64,000 nt of DNA from Bacteroidia bacterium (GTDB taxonomy: Bacteria; Bacteroidota; Bacteroidia; M30B66): contig JAIBAI010000008.1 of assembly GCA_019695235.1 (NCBI GenBank), positions 2,607 through 66,606 on the forward strand, written 5' to 3'. The notes beneath the pieces were generated by a model. The model had not been told where the DNA came from. It worked only from the letters and a program-made list of their open reading frames with translations, and ran no database searches. Below, one piece after another: positions 1,023 through 34,594 of the stretch. Within the stretch, counting starts at the first letter, position 1, and the number at the start of each line of letters is the position of its first letter. A program made the translations under genes and the position numbers.

Positions 1023-1034
1023 CTTTTTTATATG

Positions 1035-4667: not shown

Positions 4668-4676
4668 GCTACAAGG

Positions 4677-6308: not shown

Positions 6309-6343
6309 GTTACCTGAGAGGGCGGCAGGCTGTTGCTATCAAG

Positions 6344-10760: not shown

Positions 10761-10773
10761 ACCATTCGCATCT

Positions 10774-14021: not shown

Positions 14022-14033
14022 TCCCTTTCAAAC

Positions 14034-15749
14034 ATGAAAAAACGTCAGGAAATAAGGCGAAAGATTCAGCTCAACCAAAGGGTACTATTAAAACGCCTTC
14101 CGGTTTATATACTGCTGGGGCTGACTGGAGTTGCGCTATGGTTCACCTACCTATTTACAATCAATGGTGTTAAAAGCTATGGCGCTATAACAGCCGATAC
14201 CACACAGTCGAACCTGCTTAACGTAACAATTAACCGGGATTTTCCTGTTCAGTCATTGCAAAATGATCTGGTTCCATTTTTGATATGCTATACCCATGAA
14301 GAGCTTCGGCACACCGATCAGGGTGGCAAAGTAATCAGCCGTGATGGTGCTGATATTCATTTTTTTGGTTTTGATAAGTCTCCGCTGGTTTATGAAATCG
14401 AACGCTATGAGCCTTTCACAGGCAGGGTTTGGGCTTGGGTTCACCTGAATCATGAGCTGGCAAAACAAGGCAAAATATTTATTGGCTATGGAGAAGCTTC
14501 TGATGAAATGCTTACCGGTTTTGGGTACCCCTACTTCTCGGTTTGGCACCTCAATGGAGGTTTTCAGTCTTCTGCTGCCTATCCACTTGCAGGAGAATAC
14601 CGGATGATAAAAGATGGTGAGGGGAAGATTTGTGGAGCAAAAGAATTCAACGCTTCAAGCCAGGCATCCATTTCTTTTGACCGGCCTGTTTCGTTTCCAA
14701 CGCATGGAAATATACAGGTGTCGGCTTGGTTTAAACCAAACACTACCGGAGATGTACAATATCTTTTTACCGACAAGAACAATAAAGGAGGTATAAGTCT
14801 TTTTATTGACCGGAATAATCGTCCTGCTTTTGAACTTTATAAAGGAAGTAAAAAACAAAGTGTCAAGGGTTCAACACCAATCTCTGCTGGTGTATGGTAT
14901 AAGTTTACAGCCGGTATTGACACCATAAAACAACAACTTTATATCTATGTCAACAATCAATTGGTAGGTGTAAGCCAAACCAACTGGTCGTACCAAAATG
15001 GCGGGAGGTTGGTAATTGGTGCTGTATCTGAGCGCTGCCACAGCTTCCTCGACGGAACACTTGATGAATTGCGTGTGTCTTCTTTGGGTAATGATTCTTT
15101 GCTAATTGGTTCCCAATTCCTATGTGAAAACAATCCACAATATCTGCTTGGTTCATCTGCACTTGTTTCTGAAAAGAAAGAAGGTGCAAAAATTTCAGAT
15201 CTTGAAGCTGAGGCAAAAAACGAGTACGTGGCAGTACGTTGGTTTAGTGAGAACGAACACCTCGCCGAATATTATATGCTTGAAAGAGCTTCCGGCAAAG
15301 ACTCATTCAGAACCATTCAAACCTGTGAGGTAAGAAGTAACAGTGGCACTGGTGGTCAAAATTATGTTCTTCTTGATAAAGAACCCCTCCAGGGCGAATC
15401 TGTTTACCGCATCAGTACTTTTGGTCGGGCAGGAAAACAAACTCCTGAGCTAACCGCAAAAGTATTTTTCAGCAATTCAGGAAACCCGATTTCAATCCGG
15501 CAAGTATCACCTAACCCGTTTAAAAGCAGGTTTGATGTGAGTTTCAGCACACAAACCAAAGAAGCGGTACAAATAAGTCTGACGAGTATGAGTGGTGAAA
15601 CCGTACATAAATCTGCATTTACGCCAGAAGAAACAGGGGATCAACTTTTCCACTTCAATGGTTCAGATAAGCTGTCTCCGGGCGTTTATTTTCTCAATCT
15701 CAGGCAGTCTGACTACCAGCGCACACTTAAGTTGGTTAAAAGAGGATAA
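14034..15749 (+). CDS. N-anchored/secreted protein with DUF2341-like N-domain, LamG-like jellyroll, beta-module and T9SS C-terminal sorting domain (cassette 1)
   Basis: N-terminal basic region plus hydrophobic segment. GGKVISRDGADIHFFGF...YEIERYEP.TGRVWAWV. LamG signature LDGTLDELRVSS. Module VAVRWFSENEHLAEYYMLERAS.KDSF. T9SS CTD ...PGVYFLNLRQSDYQRTLKLVKRG. Confidence 0.7.
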   Translation: MKKRQEIRRKIQLNQRVLLKRLPVYILLGLTGVALWFTYLFTINGVKSYGAITADTTQSNLLNVTINRDFPVQSLQNDLVPFLICYTHEELRHTDQGGKVISRDGADIHFFGFDKSPLVYEIERYEPFTGRVWAWVHLNHELAKQGKIFIGYGEASDEMLTGFGYPYFSVWHLNGGFQSSAAYPLAGEYRMIKDGEGKICGAKEFNASSQASISFDRPVSFPTHGNIQVSAWFKPNTTGDVQYLFTDKNNKGGISLFIDRNNRPAFELYKGSKKQSVKGSTPISAGVWYKFTAGIDTIKQQLYIYVNNQLVGVSQTNWSYQNGGRLVIGAVSERCHSFLDGTLDELRVSSLGNDSLLIGSQFLCENNPQYLLGSSALVSEKKEGAKISDLEAEAKNEYVAVRWFSENEHLAEYYMLERASGKDSFRTIQTCEVRSNSGTGGQNYVLLDKEPLQGESVYRISTFGRAGKQTPELTAKVFFSNSGNPISIRQVSPNPFKSRFDVSFSTQTKEAVQISLTSMSGETVHKSAFTPEETGDQLFHFNGSDKLSPGVYFLNLRQSDYQRTLKLVKRG

Positions 15750-16030
15750 TATCATCCTTTTATATTCAATAAAAACATGTTGAATGCATTAATCCTGACA
15801 GGGCTAATGCATTTTTTAATTGTACAAAATTGAAATTTAGTTTAAGTGCAAATTCTTTCACACATAATTTCTGGGTGTTTTCACAAAACTCTTGTAAATA
15901 AAGGGTTTCAGCGTATGAAAACAAGGATTAGCCAAAAATCTTACATCTGCAAGAAAGTAAACAGCAAGGCAAGAAACAGGTATAACTGTAGCCTGGAGTT
16001 TACGTAACAGAAGCCATCAACCTTTTGAAC

Positions 16031-16507
16031 ATGAAACGGATTTATTTTAGTTTAGTACTGGCCGCCGGAATGGTTGCCTTCGCATCTTCAGATTTGAATG
16101 CGCAACAGGTATCAGCCACGAGCACCTCGATGCTTGGCAAGGGTAACCTTGTGCCGGATTCTGTAGATAATTTCATCTCCTTCTCACCGGTGTATATGGA
16201 GGGTAAAACCTATGTACGCTGGCTGGTAAAAAACGATCGTAAAGACGGTGTTTTCATTGTTGAGCGTTCTGGTGATGGTGCAGAATTTGAAGCCATGGGT
16301 TTTCGTGATCGCGTAGGCACTCAGCTTTCAGTAAATCTCTTCTATTCTTATGTAGATGAAGAACCACTGGCAGGCTATAATCATTACCGGATTTTACAGG
16401 TAGGAGCCGACAACACTTACCGCTACAGCCCTGTAGTTAAGGTAAAAACAAACATTCCTGAACGTCAGGCTGGCTCTGTTGCTATTGACCAACCTGAATC
16501 AAAATAA
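16031..16507 (+). CDS. Small secreted beta-module protein, cassette 2
   Basis: Signal peptide ...FASSDLNAQQ. Module KTYVRWLVKNDRKDGVFIVERSGDGAEFEAMGFRDRVG...YRILQVG. Confidence 0.65.
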   Translation: MKRIYFSLVLAAGMVAFASSDLNAQQVSATSTSMLGKGNLVPDSVDNFISFSPVYMEGKTYVRWLVKNDRKDGVFIVERSGDGAEFEAMGFRDRVGTQLSVNLFYSYVDEEPLAGYNHYRILQVGADNTYRYSPVVKVKTNIPERQAGSVAIDQPESK

Positions 16508-16544
16508 TCAGAAGGCACCTCCCTTTCTTAACAACATTTCATTT

Positions 16545-18317
16545 ATGAAGAAGAACTCTACACGCCTCGCACCCAAAACCAAAGTAAAGGTCAGCCTCCG
16601 GAACCGCTTACGGTATGTGACAATTGCCGGTGCTTTTGCCTTTGGTATTTTTTCAGTCACTATGGTGTACAACTCTTTGATTAACACTGAGGAGAGCCGC
16701 GCCAACAACCGTTTCAACGGTATGGAAACTTTGGCTGAATTCAAATTCAGAAAGCAATTGGTGCTCAACCAGGAATTGATCCCTGAAAACACTTTATTAC
16801 AAGATTTCCCCGTGATGGTTGCTTTGGCCGATCCGGATTTGAAATCTGCATCCAATGGCGGGAAAGTTCTCAGTGAAAAGGGTTTCGACATCCGTTTCAC
16901 CAAAGCCGATGGTGTTAGTTTACTTGAATACGAGATTGAAAAATACAATCCGGCAACAGGCGAATTAGTTGCCTGGGTGAACATGGACACCCTCAGCAGA
17001 GGTATTTCACGCCATGTTTATATGTATTTCAGCAATAAGTTTTCTGCTGATGAAAGCAGCCAGAATACTTGGAATAAGACTTACAAAGGTGTGTGGCATT
17101 TGAGAGGAATTCTCAGCTCAAAAACACCTTTCTCGACCCAGGTTGCCCAGAAAGCTGTAACACCAGTAACGCAGGATAAAGATGTATATGTTGCAGCTGA
17201 AAAGAATTCAAGCCGCTACCCTTGTCTGAATACCCCTGAGGATGTTGATATTACTGGCGACTTGAGCGTGTCTGCCTGGGTGTATATCACAGGAAGCAAA
17301 GAAATGACAATTCTTTCGAACCAGAACGGTTTTAACGGTGGCTATCGTCTTTCACTCAACAAGAATCAAAAACTCGAATTGTCGGTGAGTAACGAAAATG
17401 CTGAATCCGCTGCTATCAAAGGTAGCTCTGATGGCACCACACTCGAGAAAAACAAATGGTATCATGTTGCAGCGGTGTATTCTGACCGTGGTGATTCTAT
17501 GTGTACTTATGTAAATGGCAAGCGTGATCGCTTTCTTACAACATACGTAAGCATGGCGGGAAGCAGCAGCCCCCTTCAAATAGGCAGAGAACCCTCTAAG
17601 AAAATTTTCTACTTCGGTGGACAAATAGAGGAGGTACATGTCCGCAATGTGGTGATGAACAATCACTGGATTCAAACAGAATACGTCAATCAAAATAATC
17701 CGATGGAATTCATTAAACCGGGCATGACTGAAAATATCACCCAGCAAATTTCAATGAGCCTTTTGACGCTTGATGCAGAAACACAAGGACAAACAGTTGA
17801 GTTGAAATGGCTTACTGTAAACGAGAACAACAATGAACTTTTCACCATTGAACGTTCTACCGACGGGCTTACCTATGAAGTAATCGGCACCAAACCAGGA
17901 GCAGGGAACAGCATAGAAGTGTTAAGTTATCGTTTCAGAGACGAGAAACCGGTGGTAGGGAAAAACTTCTACCGTGTTAAATTAACCGACACGCAGGGAA
18001 ACAACGAATTTTCAATGATTACTCCGGCCAGCGTGGAAGCGATGGGCGAGGATAAAATTCAAATTGCCTCAGCGCAACCCAATCCATTCAATAAAGATTT
18101 CATGGTTGAATACCGGGTTCCAAAAACCGGAATGGCCAAAGTAAAACTTACAAGTGTTAAGGGAGATGTATTGCATGAGCAGGAAGTTGCCTGCGAAAAA
18201 TCAAAAGCTCAACACTTCCAGTACAAGGATGATGCCGGTATCCGTGCCGGTGTTTATTTCCTCACAATAGCACAGGAAACCGAATCCAAGACTATCAAAC
18301 TAATCAAGAAGCTGTAA
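16545..18317 (+). CDS. DUF2341-like/LamG-like protein with T9SS C-terminal domain, cassette 2
   Basis: ATG at 16545 (MKKNSTRLAPKTK) by analogy with its paralogs. GGKVLSEKGFDIRFTKADG..LEYEIEKYNPATGELVAWV. LamG GGQIEEVHVRNV. Module VELKWLTVNENNNELFTIERSTDGLTYE. CTD GVYFLTIAQETESKTIKLIKKL. Confidence 0.7.
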   Translation: MKKNSTRLAPKTKVKVSLRNRLRYVTIAGAFAFGIFSVTMVYNSLINTEESRANNRFNGMETLAEFKFRKQLVLNQELIPENTLLQDFPVMVALADPDLKSASNGGKVLSEKGFDIRFTKADGVSLLEYEIEKYNPATGELVAWVNMDTLSRGISRHVYMYFSNKFSADESSQNTWNKTYKGVWHLRGILSSKTPFSTQVAQKAVTPVTQDKDVYVAAEKNSSRYPCLNTPEDVDITGDLSVSAWVYITGSKEMTILSNQNGFNGGYRLSLNKNQKLELSVSNENAESAAIKGSSDGTTLEKNKWYHVAAVYSDRGDSMCTYVNGKRDRFLTTYVSMAGSSSPLQIGREPSKKIFYFGGQIEEVHVRNVVMNNHWIQTEYVNQNNPMEFIKPGMTENITQQISMSLLTLDAETQGQTVELKWLTVNENNNELFTIERSTDGLTYEVIGTKPGAGNSIEVLSYRFRDEKPVVGKNFYRVKLTDTQGNNEFSMITPASVEAMGEDKIQIASAQPNPFNKDFMVEYRVPKTGMAKVKLTSVKGDVLHEQEVACEKSKAQHFQYKDDAGIRAGVYFLTIAQETESKTIKLIKKL

Positions 18318-18336
18318 CCTAACCGTTACTTTTTAA

Positions 18337-18370
18337 CCCCGCGAGGACTTGTTCTGAGCGGGGTTTTTTA
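18337..18370 (+). terminator. Rho-independent terminator
   Basis: CCCCGCgaggacttgttctgaGCGGGG followed by TTTTTT, directly after the stop at 18317. Confidence 0.7.
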
Positions 18371-18432
18371 ACGCAACGTTTACGCTTAAATCAAAAATGA
18401 ATTTTTCTCCCGTTTAACCTAACCCTATCCGT

Positions 18433-18918
18433 ATGAATTTCTGTCATAAATATTCACAGCGAAAAAAATTACTCATCCTTTCTGCACTGATAGGTTTGAT
18501 ATTAAGCGGTACGGGCGATGCCGCTGCTCAGCAACAATACGGTGCAGGCCTTGTAGGTTCAGCCCGCTTGTATCAGGAAGAAAGCAACAATATTGTTTCG
18601 TTTTCGCCCGTTTATGCCGAAGGGAAATCTTATATCCGATGGCTTGTACAAAATGATGAAAAAGACGGCATCTTCATTGTGGAGCGTTCTTCTGACGGCA
18701 TTCTTTTCGAAGCGCTCGGCTTTAAAGACCGGATTGGTTCATCACTTTGTGTAAACCTTTTTTATTCGCTAACCGATGAAACCCCTTTTCCGGGCACCAC
18801 ATGGTATCGTATCATGGCTGTTAGTACCGACCAAACCTATTCATACAGTTCAGTGGTACGTGTGAAAACCCAGGCGGCGAAAGAACCCGGAAACGGAAAT
18901 ACCGTATTAGGAGAATAA
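18433..18918 (+). CDS. Small secreted beta-module protein, cassette 3
   Basis: Signal peptide ...GTGDAAAQQQ. Module KSYIRWLVQNDEKDGIFIVERSSDGILFEALGFKDRIG...YRIMAVS. Confidence 0.65.
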   Translation: MNFCHKYSQRKKLLILSALIGLILSGTGDAAAQQQYGAGLVGSARLYQEESNNIVSFSPVYAEGKSYIRWLVQNDEKDGIFIVERSSDGILFEALGFKDRIGSSLCVNLFYSLTDETPFPGTTWYRIMAVSTDQTYSYSSVVRVKTQAAKEPGNGNTVLGE

Positions 18919-18955
18919 GATTTCTCGTAAAACAAGAATAACCAGATAATCTATC

Positions 18956-20347
18956 ATGAAACCCAGGCTACACCTCAAACCAAAAAACAAGGTACGTGTA
19001 AGTGCTTCGGTTCGTCTGGTAGTTGCAGGAGCAGTGTTTGCAACACTCGTTGCTGTAGGCTTTCTGGTTTATTACAATTTCGGAACAAGTACCGATACGT
19101 GGGCATTTAACGAATCACGTTTTTCGGGTTATGCCTGGCGAAAAAAAATAAGTTTCGACAAAACGATATTACAGGGTAATGAGACTTTGTACAATTTCCC
19201 ATTATTAATTGAAGTGAAAGACCCTGATTTAAAACATATTAGCCGGGGCGGGAAAATGGTTCACCTTAAAGGTGGTGATATCCGGTTCAGTAAAGCAGAT
19301 GGTGAAACTGTTTTGATTTCACAAATTGAACACTATAATCCTGAATCCGGGAGGCTATTGGCCTGGGTACTTCTGGATACGCTGTCGGCAAAAAGTGCAT
19401 CTTCGATATACCTCTATTTCAGCCGTGCCGATATACCACCCTCTAATAATTCGCTCTTCTGGGAAGGTTCGTATCAGGCCATCTGGCATTTTAGCAATAG
19501 TCTCCAGGCCGACAATTCACGCCGAATTCGTGCTACCATGATGGGCACATCTGAAGCAAATGGTGTTGTTGGAAATGGGAGAAATTTTAGTGCTGCTAAT
19601 AGCGACTGTGCTCAATTTCCCTGGTTACAGGAACTTGATTTAAAGGCCGATATCAGTGTATCAGCATGGGTTCAGTTGCATTCAATTAACCGTCATCAGG
19701 TAATTCTATCAAATCAGGGCGACCAACCAGGTGGATACCGTTTGTATATTGACAAGAACAACAAAGTGGCATTTGATTTTATCAATTTGGCAGGAATGCA
19801 CCTAGGCACTGAAAGCAGCCCGGGTGGTCAGGAACTAGAAAACGGGCAATGGTACCATATCGCTGCTGTTTATTCTTTGGATGATAAAACCATTCGCACT
19901 TACCTCAACGGTCAATTAGACAAAGTAGCCGTGGTGAATGACTCCCCGGCGCCAACACCCGCTGCTTTGCAAATGGGGCGCGATCAGTTTGTTGCTGATA
20001 CATATCTTGATGGTACTATTGACGAGGTACGCTTAAGTAAAATGGTTAAATCATCAACCTGGCTTTTAACTGAATATTACACGATGAAAATGGCCGGAAG
20101 CCTTTTCCGGATGGGGCCTTCAGAAGCGTTGCAGATGCATGCATCTGCTGTGAAATCAAACAAAGAAGCCATGAATCTGCTTAGCCGAACCGAAGCAGAG
20201 CAGCAGGAAGCCGTCAACCAGTTACAGGCAAAGAAAAACTCCGGAACCGCACCAACACTCATCCCAATGAGCGAAAACAACGACGTAATAAAAGCCCGTC
20301 TTGAAAATATCCGCAGGGTGTCTAAAGACAATGCGAAGGCTGAATAA
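18956..20347 (+). CDS. DUF2341-like/LamG-like protein, cassette 3, with no beta-module or T9SS CTD; C-terminus is a coiled coil
   Basis: GGKMVHLKGGDIRFSKADGETVLISQIEHYNPESGRLLAWV. LamG DGTIDEVRLSK. C-terminus ...EAEQQEAVNQLQAKKNS...ARLENIRRVSKDNAKAE. Confidence 0.65.
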   Translation: MKPRLHLKPKNKVRVSASVRLVVAGAVFATLVAVGFLVYYNFGTSTDTWAFNESRFSGYAWRKKISFDKTILQGNETLYNFPLLIEVKDPDLKHISRGGKMVHLKGGDIRFSKADGETVLISQIEHYNPESGRLLAWVLLDTLSAKSASSIYLYFSRADIPPSNNSLFWEGSYQAIWHFSNSLQADNSRRIRATMMGTSEANGVVGNGRNFSAANSDCAQFPWLQELDLKADISVSAWVQLHSINRHQVILSNQGDQPGGYRLYIDKNNKVAFDFINLAGMHLGTESSPGGQELENGQWYHIAAVYSLDDKTIRTYLNGQLDKVAVVNDSPAPTPAALQMGRDQFVADTYLDGTIDEVRLSKMVKSSTWLLTEYYTMKMAGSLFRMGPSEALQMHASAVKSNKEAMNLLSRTEAEQQEAVNQLQAKKNSGTAPTLIPMSENNDVIKARLENIRRVSKDNAKAE

Positions 20348-20451
20348 GATAACGCAGCCGCTTTATTTTGCCATTTGTGCGCTATTAAAAGATTTATTAA
20401 GGCCTCATTGTATTAAGCAAATATGGCCTGCAAAAACCAGCTCTCTTAATT

Positions 20452-20478
20452 AGCGGCTAAAAGCAAAGCCGCTTTTTA
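20452..20478 (+). terminator. Rho-independent terminator
   Basis: AGCGGCTaaaagcaaAGCCGCT followed by TTTTT. Confidence 0.5.
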
Positions 20479-20604
20479 CTATTTTTGGGCATAATGTTCG
20501 CTAAGCAGGATGTTGTTAGCACCAGCAATCTGAACAGCTGTCATCAATCAATACTTGAGAATAAAAAGATATTGCAAATTTCATTATTACATTCAAAAAA
20601 ACGC

Positions 20605-21822
20605 ATGAAAGCGCTACAAACAATAACAATGGCATTATTTATCACGGTATTACTATCTTCATGTAAAAAAGAAGATGATGTTGTCCCTAATCATGATAAT
20701 CCAAATAATATAACACTACTCAATACGAGTCAATGGACAGTCGTTGCGAGCCATATTCAAAAGAAACAACAGGGCAATCTGGGCGGGCGTTTCGGTACTT
20801 CTGCGTTCAGTTTACAAAAGCAGGATGAGTTGCGTTGGTATCTATACTTTAGTCACATGACAGGCATTCAGGACCCGATAGAGATTGTTGTAAACAACCA
20901 AAATGCTGTAACTGTAACTAAGCCACCAGGAAATATGGCTTCAGATTTCAGAGACATAAAAACCATTTATGGAGCCGACACGTGGGAAACCCGCATATCT
21001 TCTACATCTTCCAATAATTCCATCAATATCAATTCGTATAAAAATGGGCAATATACAGACATTGGTTATTCAAACTTTACTATGCATAAATTACAAGCAT
21101 CCGAAGATGGACTTTTGACTTCTAAAGAGTTCTATGGTGGCAACAATAGCGTTTCCCATTATCATTATGGTAGCGGGCAGTGGAAAGATAATGTGTTTTG
21201 GGCTACCCAATTTGTATCAACCCGTTACAATGGTAAAACCTATGTTGCCACTTTACTAAATGACGGAACAACGGGTACTCAAGGAACCTTTACAGTATTT
21301 GAAGAATCTAACACTCCTGGCCCCTCCAATGTTTATGAGATGACCAATAAGAATGAAGTGATAATTCCAAATGCAGGATATATTATGCACTCAACTCGCC
21401 ATAATGAAAATCTTTTTGTTGCTATTAATGCTCAGTGGCAAAATAAATATGTGGTGTATAAAATCAATCTAAATAACTATTATGTACAAAAAGTAATGGA
21501 AGAAACGAAAGTAGAAAATTATGAGAATCCCGAATTTATTATAAAAAACCTTGCTTCATTAGCGGAGATAGACCCACAAGGAAATTTATATATGGTAGCC
21601 AATCGCGTGGAAAATATGGATTCACATTACAGCATCAGGAAATACAAAACTACCGGTGGCAGCGAAGTAATACTAAAAGAAGAAGGCCTTAAAAAGCTCA
21701 CACGAATTGATGCTGTTTATTTTTTCAATAATAAATTACATGCTGCAATTATTTACAGAGAAGAATTGGCCGGTAATAACGGAATGAACAATTACCACAT
21801 GCAAATAATTTGTCAAAAATAA
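20605..21822 (+). CDS. Hypothetical lipoprotein, the first gene of the AT-rich region
   Basis: Lipoprotein signal MKALQTITMALFITVLLSSC. AT-rich coding sequence with no recognisable catalytic motif. Confidence 0.5.
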   Translation: MKALQTITMALFITVLLSSCKKEDDVVPNHDNPNNITLLNTSQWTVVASHIQKKQQGNLGGRFGTSAFSLQKQDELRWYLYFSHMTGIQDPIEIVVNNQNAVTVTKPPGNMASDFRDIKTIYGADTWETRISSTSSNNSININSYKNGQYTDIGYSNFTMHKLQASEDGLLTSKEFYGGNNSVSHYHYGSGQWKDNVFWATQFVSTRYNGKTYVATLLNDGTTGTQGTFTVFEESNTPGPSNVYEMTNKNEVIIPNAGYIMHSTRHNENLFVAINAQWQNKYVVYKINLNNYYVQKVMEETKVENYENPEFIIKNLASLAEIDPQGNLYMVANRVENMDSHYSIRKYKTTGGSEVILKEEGLKKLTRIDAVYFFNNKLHAAIIYREELAGNNGMNNYHMQIICQK

Positions 21823-21864
21823 TTTTGAAGCAAAATTTAACTCACTCTTTAGTAGCATCAATCA

Positions 21865-22908
21865 ATGAAGAATTTATTAGGATACATACTACAGCTTTTG
21901 CTTTTATTAAATGTAACCGTTAGCAAAGCTCAAAGTACCAATTGGTATTATGACCAACAAACCCGCTATGGCACTTTTCGCCATTACTCTAACGGTGGTG
22001 CCAAACTTATAACTACATCCAGGGGTGGGCGTGATTATGCAGGAGAAATGGCAGCATCCTATCAGGAACTGGTACAGATGAAGGAAGAGCGGGAAAGGCA
22101 ACGGATGATTGAAATTGAGCGCATGAGAAGGGAAAGCTTGCAGCAAGGTAGCAGCGGTTCAACAAGTGCTGTTCAAAAAAACTATGGTCCCACGCCTGCA
22201 GACTTAGCCCGGCAAGAGCAGCAAGAAAAAGATCGTTTTTACAAGCAGTATGAAGAGCTTTTGCACAACGCAAATGGTCTGTCTAACCAGGCACTTATTC
22301 TTTCTGAAATGTACAAACTGCGACCTAATGATACTGTTGCGCTGCGACTGTTCGGCATATATGCAAAACTGGGGAGAGAAGAAGATATGGATAGGTTGAA
22401 TAAATCATTTTCAGCCTCCTTTATAGCTGAAAATCATGATATTATTTGGTCAGGATGGGGACACAAAAGCTATATAGCCGGCACTTACAAATTAGTATTA
22501 ATGTACTTGGCGAAAATAAATGAACCTGACCTGAATAGTTTTGCACAAACGCTTTGCAGCCACCTGAGGTTGCACAATTGGAATGAGCTACCAGTATTGC
22601 TTGAAAAATACAGCAGTCGCTTTCCGGAGCTTTTATCGGTTTCCCCGAAACTTACTTCTGCTTTTCGTTACTTGAGTGCCCGGCAAATTGGAACAACAGA
22701 AGCAAAAGCAACTGCCGCTGAACTGCATCAGTTTGCCGTGACCCGGCGTGAAAACCGTATAATGGATTTTGTCAATATTGTTGTTCTTGATGCCGCGGTA
22801 AGTCTTGATCCGGAAAACAGCATCTACCGTGAAGAACGATTTAATTCAAATTCTATTCTCCAACTCAAACCTGCGATGCAGGAGGATTACGATTTTTTCA
22901 GCAGATAG
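21865..22908 (+). CDS. Hypothetical secreted protein with a coiled-coil segment
   Basis: Signal peptide MKNLLGYILQLLLLLNVTVSKAQS. Charged coiled coil EERERQRMIEIERMRRESLQQ. Confidence 0.45.
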   Translation: MKNLLGYILQLLLLLNVTVSKAQSTNWYYDQQTRYGTFRHYSNGGAKLITTSRGGRDYAGEMAASYQELVQMKEERERQRMIEIERMRRESLQQGSSGSTSAVQKNYGPTPADLARQEQQEKDRFYKQYEELLHNANGLSNQALILSEMYKLRPNDTVALRLFGIYAKLGREEDMDRLNKSFSASFIAENHDIIWSGWGHKSYIAGTYKLVLMYLAKINEPDLNSFAQTLCSHLRLHNWNELPVLLEKYSSRFPELLSVSPKLTSAFRYLSARQIGTTEAKATAAELHQFAVTRRENRIMDFVNIVVLDAAVSLDPENSIYREERFNSNSILQLKPAMQEDYDFFSR

Positions 22909-22918
22909 AAACCCCATC

Positions 22919-23881
22919 ATGAAATATATTTTCTTTTGTTTGTGTGCAATAGGCACTTTGCTGCCACTTCACAGTACTGCGCAATATTATGTAGGATGGA
23001 ATCGTGTTTTCCCTGACCGTGCAGGTAAAGTGATTGCTTTTAAGGCAGTTTATTCGGGCGCTTCCGACACGATTTACTTTGTAGATGTTGCTACCGGCAC
23101 TATTACAGACAGGGTGGCCGACGGGAGTTTTGGCTTAGAGTTTAAAATGTTGAAGGCTAAAGTATTGAACCGTGAGAAGGAGATGAATAAAGCACTTGTT
23201 GCGTTTCATACTTTGTCTCATTTTGAAAGGGACAAGGGAAATATGGAAGAATACATTGTGCGTTGGAAAAATGATTCAACAATTGCCAGCGCATTTTTGC
23301 CTAAAGTAGAAGTGCACAGTTATGAACCAAGAGTCTTTTATAAACCAGACAAACCCCGAAAGGTGCTGCTGGGGGTACGGCTTAACGGCGTAGCAATGCT
23401 TTACGACATGCTGGATACAACCAAAAATGGAGCAGCTAAGCTGCTTTACAGTAAAGACATAAATAAGGCCGACTACGAGGACTGGGAACGTGGGTACTTC
23501 CAGCAGGCTGTTATTTCGCCCAGCGGGAACCACGTTTTCACAATGCCTGACGGCACAATGATAGACATTGTAAAAGGTAAGAAAATATGGGATTTCAACT
23601 ATAAGAAAACAGGCTCATCTGATGTGGTTTTTAGCGAAGACGGCACGCGCATCGCCATTGAACATCAAGACAAATCAGTATCGGTTTTCAACGTAAAGAA
23701 AGGCAAGAGGCTGTATAAGATTCCTGCTCCACCAACGTTCCCGGGTGAGTTGGAAGTTGACCATTTGCTGCCACTCCCCGATATGCAGAGCTGCTTTGTT
23801 TTCTACATGGATTATAAGAATAGTGTAGCGAAAGTATTGTTGTTGAATTCTGATGGAAACTATAAAGAGATTAAGTTTTAA
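22919..23881 (+). CDS. Hypothetical secreted protein
   Basis: Signal peptide MKYIFFCLCAIGTLLPLHSTAQ. Beta-rich sequence. Confidence 0.45.
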   Translation: MKYIFFCLCAIGTLLPLHSTAQYYVGWNRVFPDRAGKVIAFKAVYSGASDTIYFVDVATGTITDRVADGSFGLEFKMLKAKVLNREKEMNKALVAFHTLSHFERDKGNMEEYIVRWKNDSTIASAFLPKVEVHSYEPRVFYKPDKPRKVLLGVRLNGVAMLYDMLDTTKNGAAKLLYSKDINKADYEDWERGYFQQAVISPSGNHVFTMPDGTMIDIVKGKKIWDFNYKKTGSSDVVFSEDGTRIAIEHQDKSVSVFNVKKGKRLYKIPAPPTFPGELEVDHLLPLPDMQSCFVFYMDYKNSVAKVLLLNSDGNYKEIKF

Positions 23882-23939
23882 CCTTGTTGGATCAATCGTT
23901 CGAATGCCGCTTTTTATTAATTGCATTCAATAAGTTACC

Positions 23940-24182
23940 ATGCCAAAATTAAAACGCTGGCTTTATGCAATTGCGATCGCAATTTTTTCCACTTTACTGG
24001 TGGCTTATGCTTATGATATTGAAAAAGAAATACCCATCGAACCTTCGAGCACACAGGCAGGACGACAAGACATACTGATTACAGTAGCTGATGCATTAGG
24101 GCTTACAGGTAGTATTTTAGTGGCGTTGGTGGCTACTGGTATCGGACTGTATTATGCTATTCGCCAACACTTCACAAGATAA
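23940..24182 (+). CDS. Small 2-TM membrane protein
   Basis: 80 aa with two hydrophobic helices. Confidence 0.35.
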   Translation: MPKLKRWLYAIAIAIFSTLLVAYAYDIEKEIPIEPSSTQAGRQDILITVADALGLTGSILVALVATGIGLYYAIRQHFTR

Positions 24183-24657
24183 TATTTTAATGAAATTGAT
24201 TGGCACAATACTCATCTTCATCGGAATAATTTTCGGTGTGTTCGGCGCAAGGTCGTATTGGCACAATTATTTGTATAATCAGGCCAGTACTACAGTAAAA
24301 GCTACGGTGAAATCCGCTGAAATAAAACCCATGTCAGGAAAAGCGGTAGGCAGTATCCGGATTGTTCTTAGTTATAAGCGTGATGGCCTTACAGACAGTT
24401 TAGAATACAATTTTTCAGAGGCATATTCAAATAAAGAACCCCTGCCCAGCGAGGAAGAATTGAAATCCGCAACTTATTATGTGCGCTATGTACCAAAGGA
24501 AAAAACAAATAAAAACATACCCGATTGGGTTATGGTAAGCAAAAAAGGTGAATTTGAAGAATTTTACGGCATATCTACGTTTACACAAATGTTCACGTTT
24601 ATTTTGCTGGGAATTATGGTAAGGATGTTCGCACGAAAAAATCAGGCGACGTTATGA
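24154..24657 (+). CDS. Membrane protein (DUF3592-like; N- and C-terminal TM)
   Basis: TM near the N-terminus (LIGTILIFIGIIFGVF) and near the C-terminus (MFTFILLGIMV). Alternative ATG at 24190. Confidence 0.4.
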   Translation: MLFANTSQDNILMKLIGTILIFIGIIFGVFGARSYWHNYLYNQASTTVKATVKSAEIKPMSGKAVGSIRIVLSYKRDGLTDSLEYNFSEAYSNKEPLPSEEELKSATYYVRYVPKEKTNKNIPDWVMVSKKGEFEEFYGISTFTQMFTFILLGIMVRMFARKNQATL

Positions 24658-25031
24658 CAAAACTTTTCTTTTTAATAATTACGCTCCTTGTGACAAAAAA
24701 CATTGTCTGTCAGTCTGACAACAAGCTTCTTATTGGTGAGTTGACAATAAGCCAAACGACAATCGAAAGGGCAAAAGTTGGTGACACTCTGGCATTTATA
24801 TTCACTAAGAAAAAATTTGTTGGTAGTATTAAAATTCACTCCGACAGTTCAATTTACGCTTGGGCAACCTGTACTTTAGGGCAAAAAGGGTATTTTTGGT
24901 GTAAAATTGGAACGTGGGATAGAAAAAAATTTGTTATCTTAAATTTACATTGCAAGACTATCATTCTAAAAAACATAACAACAGACATTGGATTAGGGCA
25001 ACAAAAGTTAATAATTCAAGACATCTGGTAA
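24654..25031 (+). CDS. Hypothetical small secreted protein
   Basis: N-terminal hydrophobic signal MTKLFFLIITLLVTKNIVCQS. Confidence 0.35.
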   Translation: MTKLFFLIITLLVTKNIVCQSDNKLLIGELTISQTTIERAKVGDTLAFIFTKKKFVGSIKIHSDSSIYAWATCTLGQKGYFWCKIGTWDRKKFVILNLHCKTIILKNITTDIGLGQQKLIIQDIW

Positions 25032-25120
25032 AGAAATTATAGCAGACGCTTTAAGCAATATAGCGGTGTACTGCGACCAGACACCTAACAGCGACTATAT
25101 CTCAAACGGAAGGTGCTTAG

Positions 25121-25669
25121 ATAATAAAAATTTGTGTCTTTAATATAGACATTATTGCACAAAAGCAAGCCATTGACATTCCGGGTAGAAGAACGATATT
25201 TGACTTTGCCTGCAATATCGAAAGCAAACTTTTTGGATTTGATGTAAAAACCAAAGATTTAGATTCAACAAGCTATTCAGATGGTGGTGTCTGTGCCGTT
25301 GGTAATCTTCTTAAATTTCTTGCAAATGATAAAGGAGTCTTTATGATTGTAGAGTTTGGGCACGACAAATCAACAACAAAGAATAGTAGCCGGGATATTG
25401 AATACATTCGAGTAGCGCCATTTCATTGCCTGCCAGAGAACACATATCGAATAGAGAATTTGGGAACCGGGCAAGTAAGGCTAAACTACACCGTAAATCA
25501 GGTTTGGGATGAGATTGACTGGAACAGGTCTTACAGTGACTTTTTTGATATTTTTTGCCAACTTTCAATAACCCATTACAAGAGAGTAAAAGCAGACGCA
25601 GAAAAGCGCATTAAATCAATAGAACAGTTCAAAGATGGCGGATATGAAAACTTTCGATTTATCAGATAA
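25121..25669 (+). pseudogene. Start-less ORF remnant adjacent to the methyltransferase, possibly a decayed partner such as a restriction endonuclease
   Basis: Open frame from the stop at 25118 to 25669 with protein-like composition. The first ATG is at 25343 (108-aa ORF); no ATG/GTG/TTG upstream in frame. The frame overlaps the MTase start. Confidence 0.3.
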
Positions 25670-27179
25670 GGCCTTACAAATAGGTAATGTGTTCACCCCT
25701 CTTAAATGGGGTGAATTTGCTATTGCAAAATTTGACCTTTTTTCAAAATGGATCAACGGGGCTTCAATATTTGATCCGACAATGGGGGAAGGCAACTTAC
25801 TTGAAGCCTTGATAACTTATGGGGTATCGCAAGGATTTACCATCAATGAACTACCGACCCATAGCCTTTTTGGCAATGAATTAAATACGGTTTATTTCAA
25901 TAGAACCATAAATAAGTTTTCTGAGAAATATGGCTTGGATATGTCTCTAAACCTTACGAATGAAGATTTTCTTAGGCTTGCGTCAGCGAAATACGATATT
26001 GTTTTTGGCAATCCCCCTTGGCAAAACTTTGTTGATTTGCCCGAGAGCTATAAAGAACAAATAAAAAGCTATTTCTTCAAATTTGACTTAATTGGCAACA
26101 GTCAAAGCCTTTTATTAGGAGGGAGTAGAATTGATATAGCTGCCCTTATCATTCAGATTGCCATTAAAGATTTTATAAAACAAGATGGTGAAGCAATAAT
26201 ATTTATGCCGCTTTCACTATTCTTAAATGATGGGGCAAATAGAAATTTCAGAACATATAGCATCGGTACAGCAAATTATCGTGTTAATTCCATTTTCGAC
26301 TTCAATGATGAAGATGTTTTCGGTGGGATTGCAACACGTTATGGGTTGACACATTTCATTAGAGACAAAAAATCTCTATTCCCAATTCCATATTTCCACA
26401 ATGAAAATGGAAGTTGGCACGAGTTCCATGCTAAACCAATGTTTCATGAAACCGATCCATTGAACATCGTCCCAAAGAATGAAATTGGGGATTTTGAAGA
26501 CATAAAACCCGTTGTAATCAAAAAGGAATCAAGTCCAAGACAAGGAATTAATACGTGTGGCGCAAATGATGTTTATTTCTTTGATAAGCTTAGTGAAGTT
26601 AATGAAAACCTAGTGCGTGTTTCCAATAAGAGTAAAGTCAGCATCGAGCTCCCTAAGCAATTCATCTTTCCTCTTATTACAGCAAAAGAGTTTAGAACGG
26701 GAATAAAATCCCCTTCGAAATGGGTTCTCTTGCCCTACAACACCAATGGCAAACCACTAGAATGGAAGCAGATTCAAATGTTTCCTGAACTTAATCAATA
26801 CCTTGAATCAAACAAAGAGATATTGCAAAGAAGAAAAGGGGTAATGTTAAATGCTTTGCTTAATAGGGGGCATTGGTGGGCAATGTTGGGAGTTGGTGAA
26901 TATAACTTCTTCCCATACAAAGTAGTATGGGAAGCATACGGCAAAACTAGTTTTAATCCAACAGTGTTTGAAGGGTATTGGCAAGCGAACCAGTCACTAC
27001 AAGCATTTATACCAATTAAAACATTAACTGAAGCTCAAAAGGTTCAAGCTGAGTTGTCAAATAAACAAATAGAAAACTATCTACTGTCTTTAAAAATGGA
27101 AGGGACAATGAATTGGGCACAACCGGGCAAAATAAAAAGGATTATCAAATACGAAGAAGAAACACTGACCTTATTTTGA
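25635..27179 (+). CDS. N6-adenine-specific DNA methyltransferase, TaqI/Eco57I-like gamma class
   Basis: Motif I FDPTMGEGNLL. Motif IV IVFGNPPWQNF (NPPW). C-terminal TaqI_C-like RQGINTCGANDVYF. Confidence 0.75.
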   Translation: MADMKTFDLSDKALQIGNVFTPLKWGEFAIAKFDLFSKWINGASIFDPTMGEGNLLEALITYGVSQGFTINELPTHSLFGNELNTVYFNRTINKFSEKYGLDMSLNLTNEDFLRLASAKYDIVFGNPPWQNFVDLPESYKEQIKSYFFKFDLIGNSQSLLLGGSRIDIAALIIQIAIKDFIKQDGEAIIFMPLSLFLNDGANRNFRTYSIGTANYRVNSIFDFNDEDVFGGIATRYGLTHFIRDKKSLFPIPYFHNENGSWHEFHAKPMFHETDPLNIVPKNEIGDFEDIKPVVIKKESSPRQGINTCGANDVYFFDKLSEVNENLVRVSNKSKVSIELPKQFIFPLITAKEFRTGIKSPSKWVLLPYNTNGKPLEWKQIQMFPELNQYLESNKEILQRRKGVMLNALLNRGHWWAMLGVGEYNFFPYKVVWEAYGKTSFNPTVFEGYWQANQSLQAFIPIKTLTEAQKVQAELSNKQIENYLLSLKMEGTMNWAQPGKIKRIIKYEEETLTLF

Positions 27180-27270
27180 CTCTAAAACAGCAACTATTCA
27201 AATTGGCGGTGCTGTGGAAACATCAAGCCTTGTGACCTATTTATCAGATTGTCGCAGTAAGTACCCGAGT

Positions 27271-27308
27271 AAAAAAAAAGAGGCTGCCTTTTCAGGCAGC
27301 CTCTTTTG
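27271..27308. terminator. Bidirectional rho-independent terminator between the MTase (+) and gdh (-)
   Basis: aaaaaaaaGAGGCTGCCttttcaGGCAGCCTCttttg, with T-runs on both sides. Confidence 0.7.
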
Positions 27309-27326: not shown

Positions 27327-28751
27327 TTATGGGAAAACTCCCAATGTGTCATAAGACTTCGCGATTTTCCTGATTGCTACCACAAATGCTGCGGTACGCA
27401 AATCCTTAATACCAGGCGTTGACTTAAACTCAGAACGGATGGTGTGGTAAGCGGTAATCATGGTTTCTTCAAGGCCTGAATACACCAGATCTAACTCATC
27501 TGCACCACGCTCTACCAGATTTTTCTGGGCGGCGGTAGCTGTTTTGCCGGTCATGTTTTCAACTACCGAAATCATATTTCTTCCGGAAGCTTCATCGTAG
27601 CGTTTGCCTAAACGTCCGAAACGAACATGGCTCAGGTTTTTCAGCCATTCGAAATAAGATACGGTCACCCCACCAGCATTTAAGAAAATGTCGGGAATTA
27701 CCATGATTCCTTTTTCATTCAGAACATCTTCAGCCTCCGGAGTTACCGGACCATTCGCTGCTTCTCCTACAATCTTACATTTAAGTCGGGCAGCATTGTC
27801 TTTGTTGATCTGGTTCTCTAAAGCTGCCGGAATCAACACATCACATTCAAGTTCTAATGCTTCGTATTTATCGTAAGGCTGCGTTCCGGCGAATCCGGTA
27901 ATACTTCCGGTTTTCTTACGGTGCTCGTCAAGAGCAATCGGGTCAATTCCATCCGGGTTGTATATTGCACCATCCCATTCTGCAATGGCGATGATGCGAC
28001 CGCCACCTTCGTGAACAAATTTCGCAGTATGGAACCCTACGTTACCAAAACCCTGAATGATAAAGGTTTTGCCGGGAAGACCGGTAGTAAGGCCTAGTTT
28101 TTCACAATCTTCAGCAATGCTAAGCGCTTCACGGATACCGAAGTAAACACCCAGCCCGGTTGCCTCTTTACGACCCCTGATTCCTCCCTGTGATACCGGT
28201 TTACCGGTTACACATGCCAAGGCATTGATTTCATTTGGGTAAAAAGTCGCATACGTATCAACAATCCAAGCCATTTCACGTTCGCCAGAACCATAATCAG
28301 GTGCCGGAACGTCTACGCCCGGCCCGATAAAGTTCTTTTTGATCAATTCAGAAGTGTACCTTCTGGTGATGCGCTCCATTTCTTCAACGGTAAGGTTGCG
28401 CGGACTGATATTAATCCCGCCTTTCGCCCCACCAAATGGAACATCTACAATAGCACACTTGTACGTCATCAACGCAGCAAGGGCCATCACCTCGTCCTGA
28501 TTCACGGTAGTACTAAAACGTATACCTCCTTTGGTTGGCACTTTGTGATGGCTGTGCTCGACCCTGAAGGCCTCAATAACCTCGAATTGCGACCCGATTT
28601 TCACCGGGAAACGCATTCTGTAAACACTGTTGCAATACTTGATTTGATCAAGAATGCCTGCGGGAACATCCACAAATGCTGCCGCGCGGTCGAAATACTT
28701 GAGAACATCTTCGTAGAAGGCATCCTCCCGCTTTTCGGTTAACTTAGACAT
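27327..28751 (-). CDS. gdh: Glutamate dehydrogenase (Glu/Leu/Phe/Val dehydrogenase family)
   Basis: Catalytic region KGGIRF...[11 protein letters not shown] and Rossmann GFGNVG. Start [10 protein letters not shown] at 28751. Confidence 0.9.
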
Positions 28752-28911
28752 GATAAATATTTTGGGGTTGTTGGGCGCAAACCTACGAAGAAGATTTGAT
28801 GTGCAACCATTCAAATAAATTCTTTTGCTTTCTAATTTAAAACAATGGGTTCGATTGTGGTTTCTCCTTTTGTTTTCTGGAAAAACATTTGTTGTTATCC
28901 ATAAAATCTTG

Positions 28912-30189
28912 CTACTCCGGCATCAGGTCTTTACCGATGTCGCGCCGAAAATACATTCCCTGGTACTGAATTCCTTCAATCGCTTTATAAACTTTTGCTC
29001 TTGCCTGCCGGATGTCTTCGGCAAGGACTGTACAGGCCAACACCCGTCCGCCGCTGGTGAGTACCTTATTCTCTTCACTTTTGGTACCTGCATGGTAAAT
29101 TTCTACTCCTGCTACCTGGTCAAGACCAGCAATGACAAAGCCTTTTTGAAATATTTCCGGATACCCGCCTGAAACACATACCACTGTGAGAGCAGTCAGG
29201 TCATCGGTTTCGATAGTGTGATTCTTCAGCTTGCCGGTTCCTGCTGCATATAATAAATCTACAAGGTCGTTTTTCAAACGTGGAATCACCACCTCGGTTT
29301 CCGGATCACCCATCCGGCAATTGTATTCAATTAAATAGGGTTCATGGTTCACCACCATCAGACCTAAAAAGATAAAACCGTTGTATAAGATCCCTTCTCG
29401 TTGCAGCCCGCGGATAGTAGGCTCAACCATTCTCTCTTTTACAAGCTGTGCAAGTTTTTCATCATAAAAAGGTACCGGAGAAACTGCCCCCATCCCCCCG
29501 GTATTCAAGCCGGTATCTCCCTCGCCTATTCTTTTGTAATCTTTGGCTTCCGGTAAAATAACGTAATCATGCCCATCTGTCAAAACAAACACTGAACATT
29601 CGATACCTTTCAAGAATTCTTCAATTACCACCTCCTGGCCTGCTGTTCCGAACTTCCCACCAAACATCTGCTCTAACTCCGAAACAGCCTCCTCAAAGGT
29701 GTTAGCTATTACTACCCCTTTACCAGCAGCAAGTCCGGACGCCTTTATTACATAAGGTGCGTTTAGCTGTTTCAGAAAGGCAATTGCCTCTTTCGCCTGG
29801 TGTTGTTGAAAGCTCTGATAACGGGCGGTAGGTATCCCATGCCGCTGCATAAATGCTTTTGAAAAGGCTTTACTGCCTTCGAGCATAGCACCTGCACTCC
29901 CTGGTCCGATAATCGCCATTTTCTCAAGACCCGGTATATTTTCAAGAAAATCTCTAATGCCTTTTACCAGCGGCTCCTCAGGGCCTGCCACCAGTAATTC
30001 AACACCCTGGCTCAGGCAAAAGGTACTTATTTGTTCAAAGTCAGTCAAACTTAAAGGCACATTTGTGCCAAACGCAGCCGTACCGGGGTTTCCCGGGGCA
30101 ATAAACAACTTGCTGCAATGTTTACTTTCTGACAATGATTTTGCCAATGCATTCTCGCGTGCTCCTGAACCGAGTAATAAGATATTCAT
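28912..30189 (-). CDS. purD: Phosphoribosylamine--glycine ligase
   Basis: [20 protein letters not shown]-terminus, then ATP-grasp region. ATG at 30189. Confidence 0.9.
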
Positions 30190-30310
30190 TTGGCAAACAT
30201 CCTGATTTTTTAGCCCTGACATATAATTATTGGCTAAAAAACTGAAAGCATGTTTATATCTCATTCATTATCCGGCATTTGCATATAATTAACACAAATT
30301 CAACACTTAG

Positions 30311-31540
30311 ATGTTTCCATTAGTAATTTTTCTACTTTTGCACCGCGATAAACAGCCCCTGTTCATGACAGCCGAAGCAAGGAAATTCTCTCTTAAACAC
30401 CTGATACCCTTACTATTTTGTCTGTTTAGCCTGCAATTGGCTGCACAGGATGAACATGCATCACATGCTGCAAGTCAGGCCACAGATAGCACTGCGGCTG
30501 CCCATACAAGCGATGCGCATGCTGCTGATTCTCATTCTGCAGCATTTGACCCGGGTAAAATGATTGTTGACCACATCACCGATACCCACGACTGGCATCT
30601 TTGGGGGCATACCCATGTTCCACTACCTGTTATTCTCTATACCCCTTCCGGCTTTGAGTGTTTTTCATCCGGTGTATTTAAAAATCACGAAACACATGCT
30701 TCACAGGCCCATACAGGCAAGCATCATACCTATGTGCTTGAAGATGAGAAAATTCTGGTGCTTGGTGTAAACGGTGAAGTTGATCCTACCCTGAGTGCTT
30801 CTATTATTGACGTTTCGATTACAAAAAATGTTCTAACTATTTTTATCGTTAGTGCCATCATGTTATTGGTATTCTTATCGGTAGCAAGGGCATATACACG
30901 CAAGCCCGGTCAGGCTCCCAAAGGACTTCAGAGTTTCATGGAGCCCCTGATAATCTTTGTGCGTGACGATATTGCAAAACCCAGTATCGGCCCGAAGTAT
31001 GAAAAATTCATGCCTTACCTGCTGACTGTTTTCTTCTTTATATGGATTGCCAACTTATTAGGTCTTGTACCTGTTATCCCTGGTGGCGCCAACATGACTG
31101 GTAACATCGCAGTAACTTTTTCACTTGCTGTATTAACTTTTATTATTACAACAGTAAATGGTAACGGGCATTACTGGCGACATATTCTTGCAATGCCCGG
31201 TGTGCCTGTTTGGGCATTGGTATTGCTTTCACCCATTGAGGTGCTGGGGATGTTTCTTCGTCCTTTCGTACTGATGATCCGATTGTTTGCCAACATTTCA
31301 GCCGGGCACATCATTGCCCTGGCATTTTTCAGCCTTATCTTTATCTTCGGCGATGGTGGAAAAAGTGTTGGTGGTGGTCTGGGCGTTGGTGTTGCTTCCT
31401 GGCTCTTTACAACTTTCATGATGTGTCTTGAATTGCTGATTGCATTTTTGCAAGCTTACGTGTTCACGCTGCTCTCGGCAATATATTTTGGCTCGGCTGT
31501 TGAAGACCATCATCATGAAGCACACGCCTCTCACAGCTAA
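30311..31540 (+). CDS. atpB: F0F1 ATP synthase subunit a with a His-rich N-terminal extension and a His-rich C-terminus
   Basis: Conserved a-subunit C-terminal helices (LRPFVLMIRLFANISAGHI...LQAYVFTLLSAIYF). About 150-aa His-rich extension after a signal-like segment. Tail EDHHHEAHASHS. Alternative start at 30365. Confidence 0.85.
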   Translation: MFPLVIFLLLHRDKQPLFMTAEARKFSLKHLIPLLFCLFSLQLAAQDEHASHAASQATDSTAAAHTSDAHAADSHSAAFDPGKMIVDHITDTHDWHLWGHTHVPLPVILYTPSGFECFSSGVFKNHETHASQAHTGKHHTYVLEDEKILVLGVNGEVDPTLSASIIDVSITKNVLTIFIVSAIMLLVFLSVARAYTRKPGQAPKGLQSFMEPLIIFVRDDIAKPSIGPKYEKFMPYLLTVFFFIWIANLLGLVPVIPGGANMTGNIAVTFSLAVLTFIITTVNGNGHYWRHILAMPGVPVWALVLLSPIEVLGMFLRPFVLMIRLFANISAGHIIALAFFSLIFIFGDGGKSVGGGLGVGVASWLFTTFMMCLELLIAFLQAYVFTLLSAIYFGSAVEDHHHEAHASHS

Positions 31541-31562
31541 TTTTAAATGAATTTTTGTTTAA

Positions 31563-31826
<264 letters not shown>

Positions 31827-31909
31827 TCGCCAATTTGAACGATCTGCCGGTTATGCGGTTGGCCTAACTGGCAGATCTTTTTTAAGCAAGAAAAACGTAA
31901 AACAAAAAC

Positions 31910-32404: not shown

Positions 32405-32410
32405 TCAGCC

Positions 32411-32968: not shown

Positions 32969-32992
32969 TTACCCCAATCAAACTGAAACGAA

Positions 32993-34573: not shown

Positions 34574-34594
34574 TAAACCCTCTTTTTTCTCCCA

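Follow-up and report, generated by a model that had tools for sequence, protein, structure and literature searches.

The 64,000-nucleotide (nt) stretch of Bacteroidia bacterium DNA analyzed here (the window; GenBank assembly GCA_019695235.1, contig JAIBAI010000008.1; 43.7% GC) carries at 25166-27234 what are very probably the remains of a compact, mobile, two-gene type II restriction-modification (RM) module, in which the endonuclease gene (R) has been truncated, the now solitary methyltransferase (MTase) gene (M) is eroding, and the envelope-protein genes on the left side form a separate cluster. The intact form of such a module would consist of a gene for a 222-amino acid (aa) endonuclease that overlaps the start of a gene for a 514-aa MTase by 35 nt. 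The endonuclease would combine a PD-(D/E)XK core with a conserved N-terminal helix carrying E39 and W46, and would cut unmethylated sites that the MTase protects in the host by adenine methylation within the same site. A preliminary description of this DNA, made from the letters alone, had pointed to a start-less open frame beside an adenine MTase and had proposed, among other explanations, that a restriction endonuclease had degenerated and that an RM system had decayed to an orphan MTase; homology to a 222-aa protein family, the predicted fold of that family, and its strict R-M linkage elsewhere uphold these two proposals.

As originally described, the frame is open from 25121 (after a TAG at 25118-25120) to 25669, has its first ATG, GTG, or TTG only at 25343, and overlaps the MTase start at 25635 by 35 nt in another frame. 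A search of protein collections with its 182-codon translation returned 624 matches, the best 120 of which are 72-96% identical and almost all 222 aa long. The hosts of the matches include Raineya, Rhodoflexus, Hugenholtzia, Saprospiraceae, Chitinophagaceae, Flavobacteriales, and many unclassified metagenome contigs, and the source annotation of the homologues is “hypothetical protein,” with the sole exception of one UniProt entry named “Restriction endonuclease.” By tblastn, positions 25166-25666 align only to residues 56-222 of the intact family member P0001 (96% identity), and residues 1-55 leave no trace in any frame of the 64 kb (N-terminal 60 residues as query, E ≤ 100); a frameshift or an inversion hiding the missing 55 codons within the window was therefore rejected. 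DNA homology to intact copies (loci L001 and L089) spans 25166-27234 with an abrupt start at 25166, and the 45 nt of open frame before this junction (25121-25165) are unrelated sequence. They belong to a 134-nt spacer (25032-25165, assigned to neither strand) that ends at the junction, is unlike intact modules, and, in a query with 23901-25165, shows no match outside its own lineage in the fetched loci, nor any Rfam hit. A weak similarity upstream of the junction (ATAATAAAAATTTGTG in the window, ATAACGGAAAATTGGG in the relatives) was dismissed as chance in AT-rich DNA; alignment fails over the following 30 nt, and the lengths disagree.

Sequence comparison thus identifies the start-less frame as, in all likelihood, the 3′ three quarters of a restriction-enzyme gene that has lost its first 55 codons. 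The remnant occupies 25166-25669 on the + strand (codons 56-222 and the stop codon; tblastn, DNA homology, and fold), and a deletion or rearrangement at 25165/25166 would have taken the first 55 codons together with the upstream promoter region. The missing N-terminal part includes a block that is nearly invariant in the family alignment, REDSRAFGAMIEKRIT-NW. The first usable start, the ATG at 25343, corresponds to family residue 115 and lies downstream of D68, D81, and K83, the candidate catalytic residues. As read from its sequence, the window gene does not encode a full-length endonuclease with both a start codon and the catalytic residues, and the remnant is probably inactive in restriction: nothing translatable from a canonical start contains these residues.

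The preliminary description had also offered a new small partner protein, and we consider it very improbable that the 108-aa open reading frame (ORF) at 25343-25669 is a functional small protein, be it an AbrB/VapB-like regulator, a partner of the MTase, or a dominant-negative fragment. Single-sequence phmmer matches of open-frame residues 80-143 to VapB antitoxins (E 3e-4 to 4e-3), the preserved 35-nt overlap with the MTase start, and a ratio of nonsynonymous to synonymous substitution rates (dN/dS) of 0.02 speak for such a protein. The ORF is, however, nothing but residues 115-222 of the endonuclease, free of any candidate catalytic residue; the family profile finds nothing in the PDB and the open frame nothing in Pfam (both at E ≤ 10), the full-length model matches restriction endonucleases rather than AbrB barrels, the short forms in loci L085 and L086 are products of in-frame stops and not separate genes, and a low dN/dS is expected after a recent truncation. 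The VapB/AbrB antitoxin identity itself was rejected, the phmmer hits against the PDB being reproduced by neither profile, Pfam, nor fold and regarded as chance.

That the remnant derives from a restriction enzyme is indicated by the structure predicted for the family. The fold comparison was made on full-length P0001, not on the window remnant, using an AlphaFold2 model built from a 37-sequence alignment (pLDDT 85, pTM 0.85). Against the PDB, Foldseek ranks SwaI first (E 1e-07, TM-score 0.64-0.67, ~230 aligned columns), followed by HincII and EcoRV (TM-score ~0.5-0.57), all three with a probability of 1.00. The predicted secondary structure consists of a long helix (31-52) followed by strands at 56-58, 69-73, and 76-86; the family alignment shows no variation at D68, D81, and K83 and next to none at E39 and W46. 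Since D68 sits just before strand 69-73, and D81-V-K83 inside strand 76-86, as is usual for this core, D68 and D81-x-K83 are, by analogy, candidates for the catalytic residues of a PD-(D/E)XK enzyme. In the model, the family resembles SwaI, HincII, and EcoRV in its whole-length fold, in size (~220-250 aa), and in the order of helix and strands, but sequence identity to them is only 9-16%, and the window copy retains only residues 56-222. No sequence match to the family was found in Pfam (including the EcoRV, HincII, and PvuII models), NCBIfam, or the PDB, with single sequences or with the profile. Structurally the family therefore appears to belong with EcoRV, HincII, and SwaI while falling into no described sequence family. 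By analogy, the intact endonuclease would be a site-specific homodimer cutting a short palindrome, and the ends would probably be blunt, because the structurally similar SwaI, HincII, and EcoRV cut blunt.

The gene order of the family elsewhere points the same way. In every fetched R locus with enough downstream DNA, R is followed by an MTase of this family (84 loci encode the 222-aa protein), which lies directly after R, overlaps it, or comes after one small extra gene; both genes are intact in 56 loci. The 35-nt R/M overlap recurs in L001 and L089. L001, from a Raineya sp. metagenome-assembled genome (MAG), encodes a 222-aa R and a 514-aa MTase that is 83% identical to that of the window, in a wholly different neighborhood. 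Cross-host DNA similarity of the modules extends from ~50 nt before the R start to ~55 nt after the M stop, and because it ends just outside R and M, the unit appears to be a compact mobile RM module of ~2.3 kb. In the window, the 3′ tail of the module, at the end of which DNA homology to other modules stops, was located by DNA alignment at 27180-27234 (+ strand). The gene tables that were inspected list no helix-turn-helix controller gene. In having R before M on one strand and no controller protein, the module agrees with EcoRI-type systems, in which R lies upstream of M and the M promoter lies inside R; here, the two genes overlap by 35 nt.

Several loci also show additional genes around the module. 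In L001 (7663-9691), the intact module comes immediately after another RM pair, made up of a D12-class (Dam-like) MTase and a SacI-like endonuclease, and the two together look like a small defense cluster. A three-gene variant, with a 177-aa gene between R and MTase that gives a weak, sub-threshold match to the Pfam PvuII endonuclease (E 7.6e-5), occurs in L085 (third gene at 6509-7042), L103 (3110-3613), L104 (6677-7180), L110 (6687-7193), and L123 (2859-3362). In L086 (5845-8693), a 224-aa gene overlaps the end of the MTase gene by 8 nt; its product scores above the Pfam RE_TaqI cut-off (E 1.6e-10), and an endonuclease replacement around the same MTase may have taken place there. Such third-gene variants may mean that different partners have been swapped in around one and the same MTase. 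Carriage of the module by phages was considered and dropped, a scan of viral contigs having returned no relative.

Outside this lineage, too, R is found broken where M remains open: L085 has a TGA at codon 41, L086 a TGG-to-TAG change at codon 46 (W46*), L098/L099 and L139 in-frame stops, and L102 a frameshift at codon 39/40. R is likewise broken by an in-frame stop in L112 and, in L141, by the frameshift also found in L102, but both contigs end before the MTase. Such breakage of R would be expected if its product endangers the host.

The truncation in the window is shared by its close relatives. Five further assemblies belong to this lineage, with 99.5-99.95% identity to the window: L004 and L088 (European Nucleotide Archive, ENA; ERZ27286469 and ERZ27233592), L122 (Joint Genome Institute, JGI; Ga0209573), and L170 (ERR14847255) and L171 (both Logan). 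The junction 25165/25166 is sharp and identical in all four other assemblies that cover it (L088, L122, L170, and L171). It would hardly be credible, then, that the junction is a chimeric assembly artifact and that the real genome carries a full-length endonuclease gene. In favor of an artifact, the source is apparently metagenome-derived, its matches are all metagenome contigs or MAGs, and the nearest species representative has just 88% identity in GDH, the gene to the right of the MTase, but the same junction appears in assemblies from ENA, JGI, and Logan. Since independent same-lineage assemblies share the truncation, the junction is real and ancestral to them. The first 55 codons of R would have been lost when the RM module became joined to the DNA now on its left.

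The truncation also appears to be recent. No conserved column is altered within residues 56-222 of the remnant, and its dN/dS against intact relatives is 0.017-0.024 (at dS ~1.2-1.7), compared with 0.017-0.040 for pairs of intact genes; because neutral drift over even a few percent of that distance would visibly raise dN, the deletion must, on this sequence evidence, have occurred recently.

The second gene, at 25635-27179 on the + strand, encodes an intact, solitary gamma-class N6-adenine DNA MTase of 514 aa, as judged from Pfam, PADLOC, profile, and model comparisons. The motifs FDPTMGEGNLL and IVFGNPPWQNF, on which the preliminary description based its call, are present: motif I, DPTMGEGNLL (residues 47-56), precedes motif IV, NPPW (126-129), both are invariant in the family, and a large C-terminal target-recognition region follows. 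The match to Pfam Eco57I (PF07669; E 2e-09, 38.2 bits against a cut-off of 25.3) confirms an N6-adenine MTase, and PADLOC models of type II and IIG MTases match strongly. The MTase profile matches M.BseCI at 2e-08, and the best structural matches of the model (pLDDT 86) are CamA and M.BseCI (E ~1e-18), followed more weakly by MmeI, BpuSI, and M.TaqI (6e-11). With M.TaqI, M.BseCI, and CamA the window MTase shares the Eco57I match, the order of motif I and then IV, the C-terminal target-recognition domain, and the fold; identity to these solved structures is only 12-18%, and Pfam TaqI_C is absent from the C-terminal 284 aa at E ≤ 1. Calling the enzyme TaqI-like, as had been done, thus seems right only broadly, in the sense of the gamma class, with CamA and M.BseCI the closer structural matches.

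The MTase gene, in turn, is being lost. The window and L004 carry an intact copy, as does L122 up to the end of its contig (aa 323). L088 carries an AAG-to-TAG change at codon 332 (K332*, position 26628, A26628T). In L170, a contig of 31.5 kb that occurs in two samples, 1 nt is deleted at position 26022, directly behind the NPPW codons; identity to the window is 99.81% and 99.90% for these two MTase-null contigs (L088 and L170). Two independent knock-outs of the MTase in a population differing at ~0.1-0.2% of sites are strong evidence that the solitary MTase is no longer needed there. Freed of a toxic partner, the MTase would be dispensable, two near-identical variants would have inactivated it independently, and loss of M was probably neutral. 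With its own upstream promoter region gone, the gene is presumably transcribed by read-through from the upstream genes on the same strand or from inside the R remnant.

It is accordingly improbable, in our view, that the MTase is a domesticated orphan kept by selection for a host function such as gene regulation or replication control, in the manner of Dam, CcrM, or CamA. The intact gene in the window, in L004, and to the contig end in L122, the fact that the window copy deviates at just 3 of 167 conserved columns, each time conservatively, and the presence of CamA, described in the literature as a solitary MTase, among the best structural matches would all suit a domesticated enzyme. Set against this are the two independent null alleles (K332* and the frameshift after NPPW) in 99.8-99.9% identical contigs, the lack of the gene at the GDH position in the closest relatives, and the nearly constant pairing of this MTase family with R elsewhere, and the pristine MTase sequence is explained by the recent loss of R. 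CamA is solitary, whereas the family of the window MTase normally stands in an R-M pair and the window copy is a leftover.

Several observations weigh against the interpretation as a decayed RM module. No promoter for the MTase was identified: the Bacteroidota-type −7 motif TAnnTTTG does not occur on the + strand at 24899-26941, and a scan for sigma-70-type promoters did not rise above shuffled sequences. TAnnTTTG is not enriched in the window at all (58 found, 64 expected), and candidates precede the first and second genes of the envelope cluster (at 20480 and 21820). Second, the MTase null alleles come from metagenome assemblies, and the nonsense change in L088, seen on a single contig, may be an assembly or read error. 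Third, continuing selection on the fragment could likewise account for the very low dN/dS of the remnant; we give this a low probability, and recency explains the value equally well. Finally, R is intact beside an M broken by a stop or frameshift in four loci (L105, L111, L132, and L161), which would be unexpected were R toxic and suggests a sequencing or assembly error, a second protecting MTase, or an inactive or less toxic R.

Comparative-genomic work on solitary MTases has described how orphan MTases arise by decay of RM systems. The course of that decay is the one followed in this lineage, R being lost first, M kept, and M then eroding, with both steps visible here: each of the five assemblies spanning the junction has the truncation, and private null alleles occur in two of the assemblies with MTase coverage. 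The locus is a recently decayed type II RM system on a well-known path, an ordinary decaying defense system. For this genome, the main gain is in annotation: what other assemblies call as a 108-aa ORF is a piece of a restriction-enzyme pseudogene, and the MTase is a leftover and not a working defense, the neighboring envelope genes being unrelated to it. It further provides a population-level snapshot of the standard path of RM decay in an uncultured, freshwater-type Bacteroidota lineage, and draws attention to a widespread endonuclease family that lacks annotation, is very conserved, is predicted to fold like EcoRV and SwaI, and has cultured carriers such as Raineya orbicola (WP_101357358) and Hugenholtzia roseola.

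The conservation of this family is itself unusual. Restriction enzymes are generally pictured as diverging faster than their methylases, but in 56 of 56 intact pairs (from the related loci L001 and L089-L169) the identity of R to P0001 exceeds that of the partner MTase to the window MTase (medians 69% and 41%). We hold it unlikely, though worth stating, that the family represents an uncharacterized type II endonuclease prototype under unusually strong constraint (dN/dS ~0.02); if it did, it might have a new specificity, or some additional constraint or function beyond ordinary restriction.

The preliminary description had set the RM remnant within an AT-rich island of ~7 kb, and in composition the region is indeed distinct. 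GC content is 0.383 in 20400-27300 as against 0.435 in 1-20400 and 0.448 in 27301-64000, the lowest-GC 6.9-kb window of the entire 64 kb starts at 20301, and tetranucleotide profiles (2 kb, inside the region versus the rest of the window) reach a distance of z = 9. The deviation is a mosaic, however, with GC of 0.36 in 20605-21822, 0.425 in 21865-23881, and ~0.37 in 23940-27234; the middle segment has an ordinary, flank-like tetranucleotide profile (z ~0.6). All ORFs of the region, the envelope genes isl1-isl6 and the frames 25343-25669 and 25635-27179, lie on the + strand, and terminator-like hairpins stand at both ends, as had been noted. That on the left, at 20452-20478 on the + strand (hairpin 20452-20473, 7-bp stem, T-run), follows the upstream DUF2341/LamG gene and marks the left edge of the AT-rich region; that on the right, at 27271-27308 on the − strand (A-run, hairpin 27276-27307, T-run), is the native terminator of GDH and lies outside the acquired DNA, and, because its hairpin is kept downstream of GDH in the nearest relative, L011, native DNA resumes on the right side from ~27271.

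It had also been suggested that the secreted and membrane proteins to the left of the RM remnant are cargo of the same acquired element. That the whole of 20.4-27.3 kb is one island from a single event strikes us as unlikely. In its favor are the lowest-GC window of the 64 kb, the single orientation of all genes, and the end of L011 synteny at GDH, together with the absence of island genes from the GDH position in all 80 GDH-anchored related loci. But the middle 2 kb (21865-23881) is of native composition; the RM module has boundaries of its own and occurs alone in ~84 loci; homologues of isl1, isl4, and isl5 stand together in two loci where the 8-9 kb fetched show no match to R or the MTase; an integrase, a tRNA, and flanking direct repeats are all absent; and the left flank is itself a variable locus of surface-polysaccharide and DUF2341/LamG genes. 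Searches of the window found no tRNA, no meaningful flanking repeat, and no Rfam element, and scans of the island ORFs with Pfam and PADLOC no recombinase or integrase domain. Comparison with relatives gave a divided answer: the region is carried by all same-lineage contigs and lacking at GDH in the 80 other loci, and L011 is syntenic only from GDH rightwards (27327-35482), with unrelated genes on the other side. At 88% GDH identity, however, L011 is too far removed for an empty site to be defined, and its synteny break therefore carries little weight. The envelope cluster at 20605-25031 would thus adjoin the RM remnant without being cargo of the same element, and, on the most economical reading, two or more separate pieces entered the variable region beside GDH.

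The six upstream genes are all on the + strand. isl1 (20605-21822; GC 0.36) encodes a 405-aa predicted lipoprotein with a signal peptide ending in LLSSC and no Pfam domain, and its family is a rare one of Bacteroidota, with only 23 representative clusters among 1.84e9 proteins. isl2 (21865-22908; GC 0.425, native-like) encodes a 347-aa secreted protein without any domain, and isl3 (22919-23881; GC 0.424) a 320-aa secreted protein with beta-propeller/WD40-type matches below Pfam cut-offs (best E 1e-4). isl4 (23940-24182) encodes an 80-aa protein with two hydrophobic segments (two transmembrane segments) that has 58% identical homologues in L173 and L176; in L122 a 17-nt deletion inside this gene splits it, and isl4 may thus be dispensable in the population too. 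isl5 (24154-24657) encodes a membrane protein whose longest ORF is 167 aa, and 139-155 aa in other assemblies, with a start at 24238 or 24190 in the gene calls of L088 and L170. It has 37 homologues in Bacteroidota, and the earlier label of DUF3592-like does not stand: Pfam, including DUF3592, gives no hit at E ≤ 10, the name being that which UniRef gives to one 55% identical homologue, from Pedobacter flavus. isl6 (24654-25031) encodes a 125-aa secreted protein with no homologue in the fetched loci outside the same lineage. PADLOC, run on the island proteins, matched only the MTase and none of these six.

L173 (Pedobacter flavus; 468-8030, ~8 kb) and L176 (3806-8456, ~5 kb) each carry homologues of isl1, isl4, and isl5 together, and no R or MTase match was found in either locus by tblastn (8-9 kb fetched). 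Because these homologues cluster without such a match in both loci, isl1, isl4, and isl5 seem to form a small recurring envelope-protein cluster, devoid of Pfam domains, that is independent of the RM module. In L176, the homologues lie near a HisKA_3/LuxR two-component system.

Within the window, GATC is underrepresented (80 observed against 199 expected under a Markov model, z = −8.4), as are other palindromes: CATATG (0 against 11.8 expected), GTATAC (2 against 11.7), and ATCGAT (0 against 5.5). The low counts of GATC, CATATG, and GTATAC hint at past or present restriction pressure from other systems. Deriving a recognition site from palindrome avoidance was tried and given up, a 64-kb sample being too small and the GATC signal not attributable to this system.

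The left flank (9.3-20.3 kb) is a variable surface locus. It carries flippase, chain-length determinant, and O-antigen-ligase-like genes (9321-13237), followed at 13515-20347 by three tandem pairs, each of a secreted ~160-aa protein and then a large DUF2341/LamG (Laminin_G_3) protein. In the gene tables of a sister contig, two of the large LamG proteins have weak or strong hits to the type IX secretion system (T9SS) domain Por_Secre_tail.

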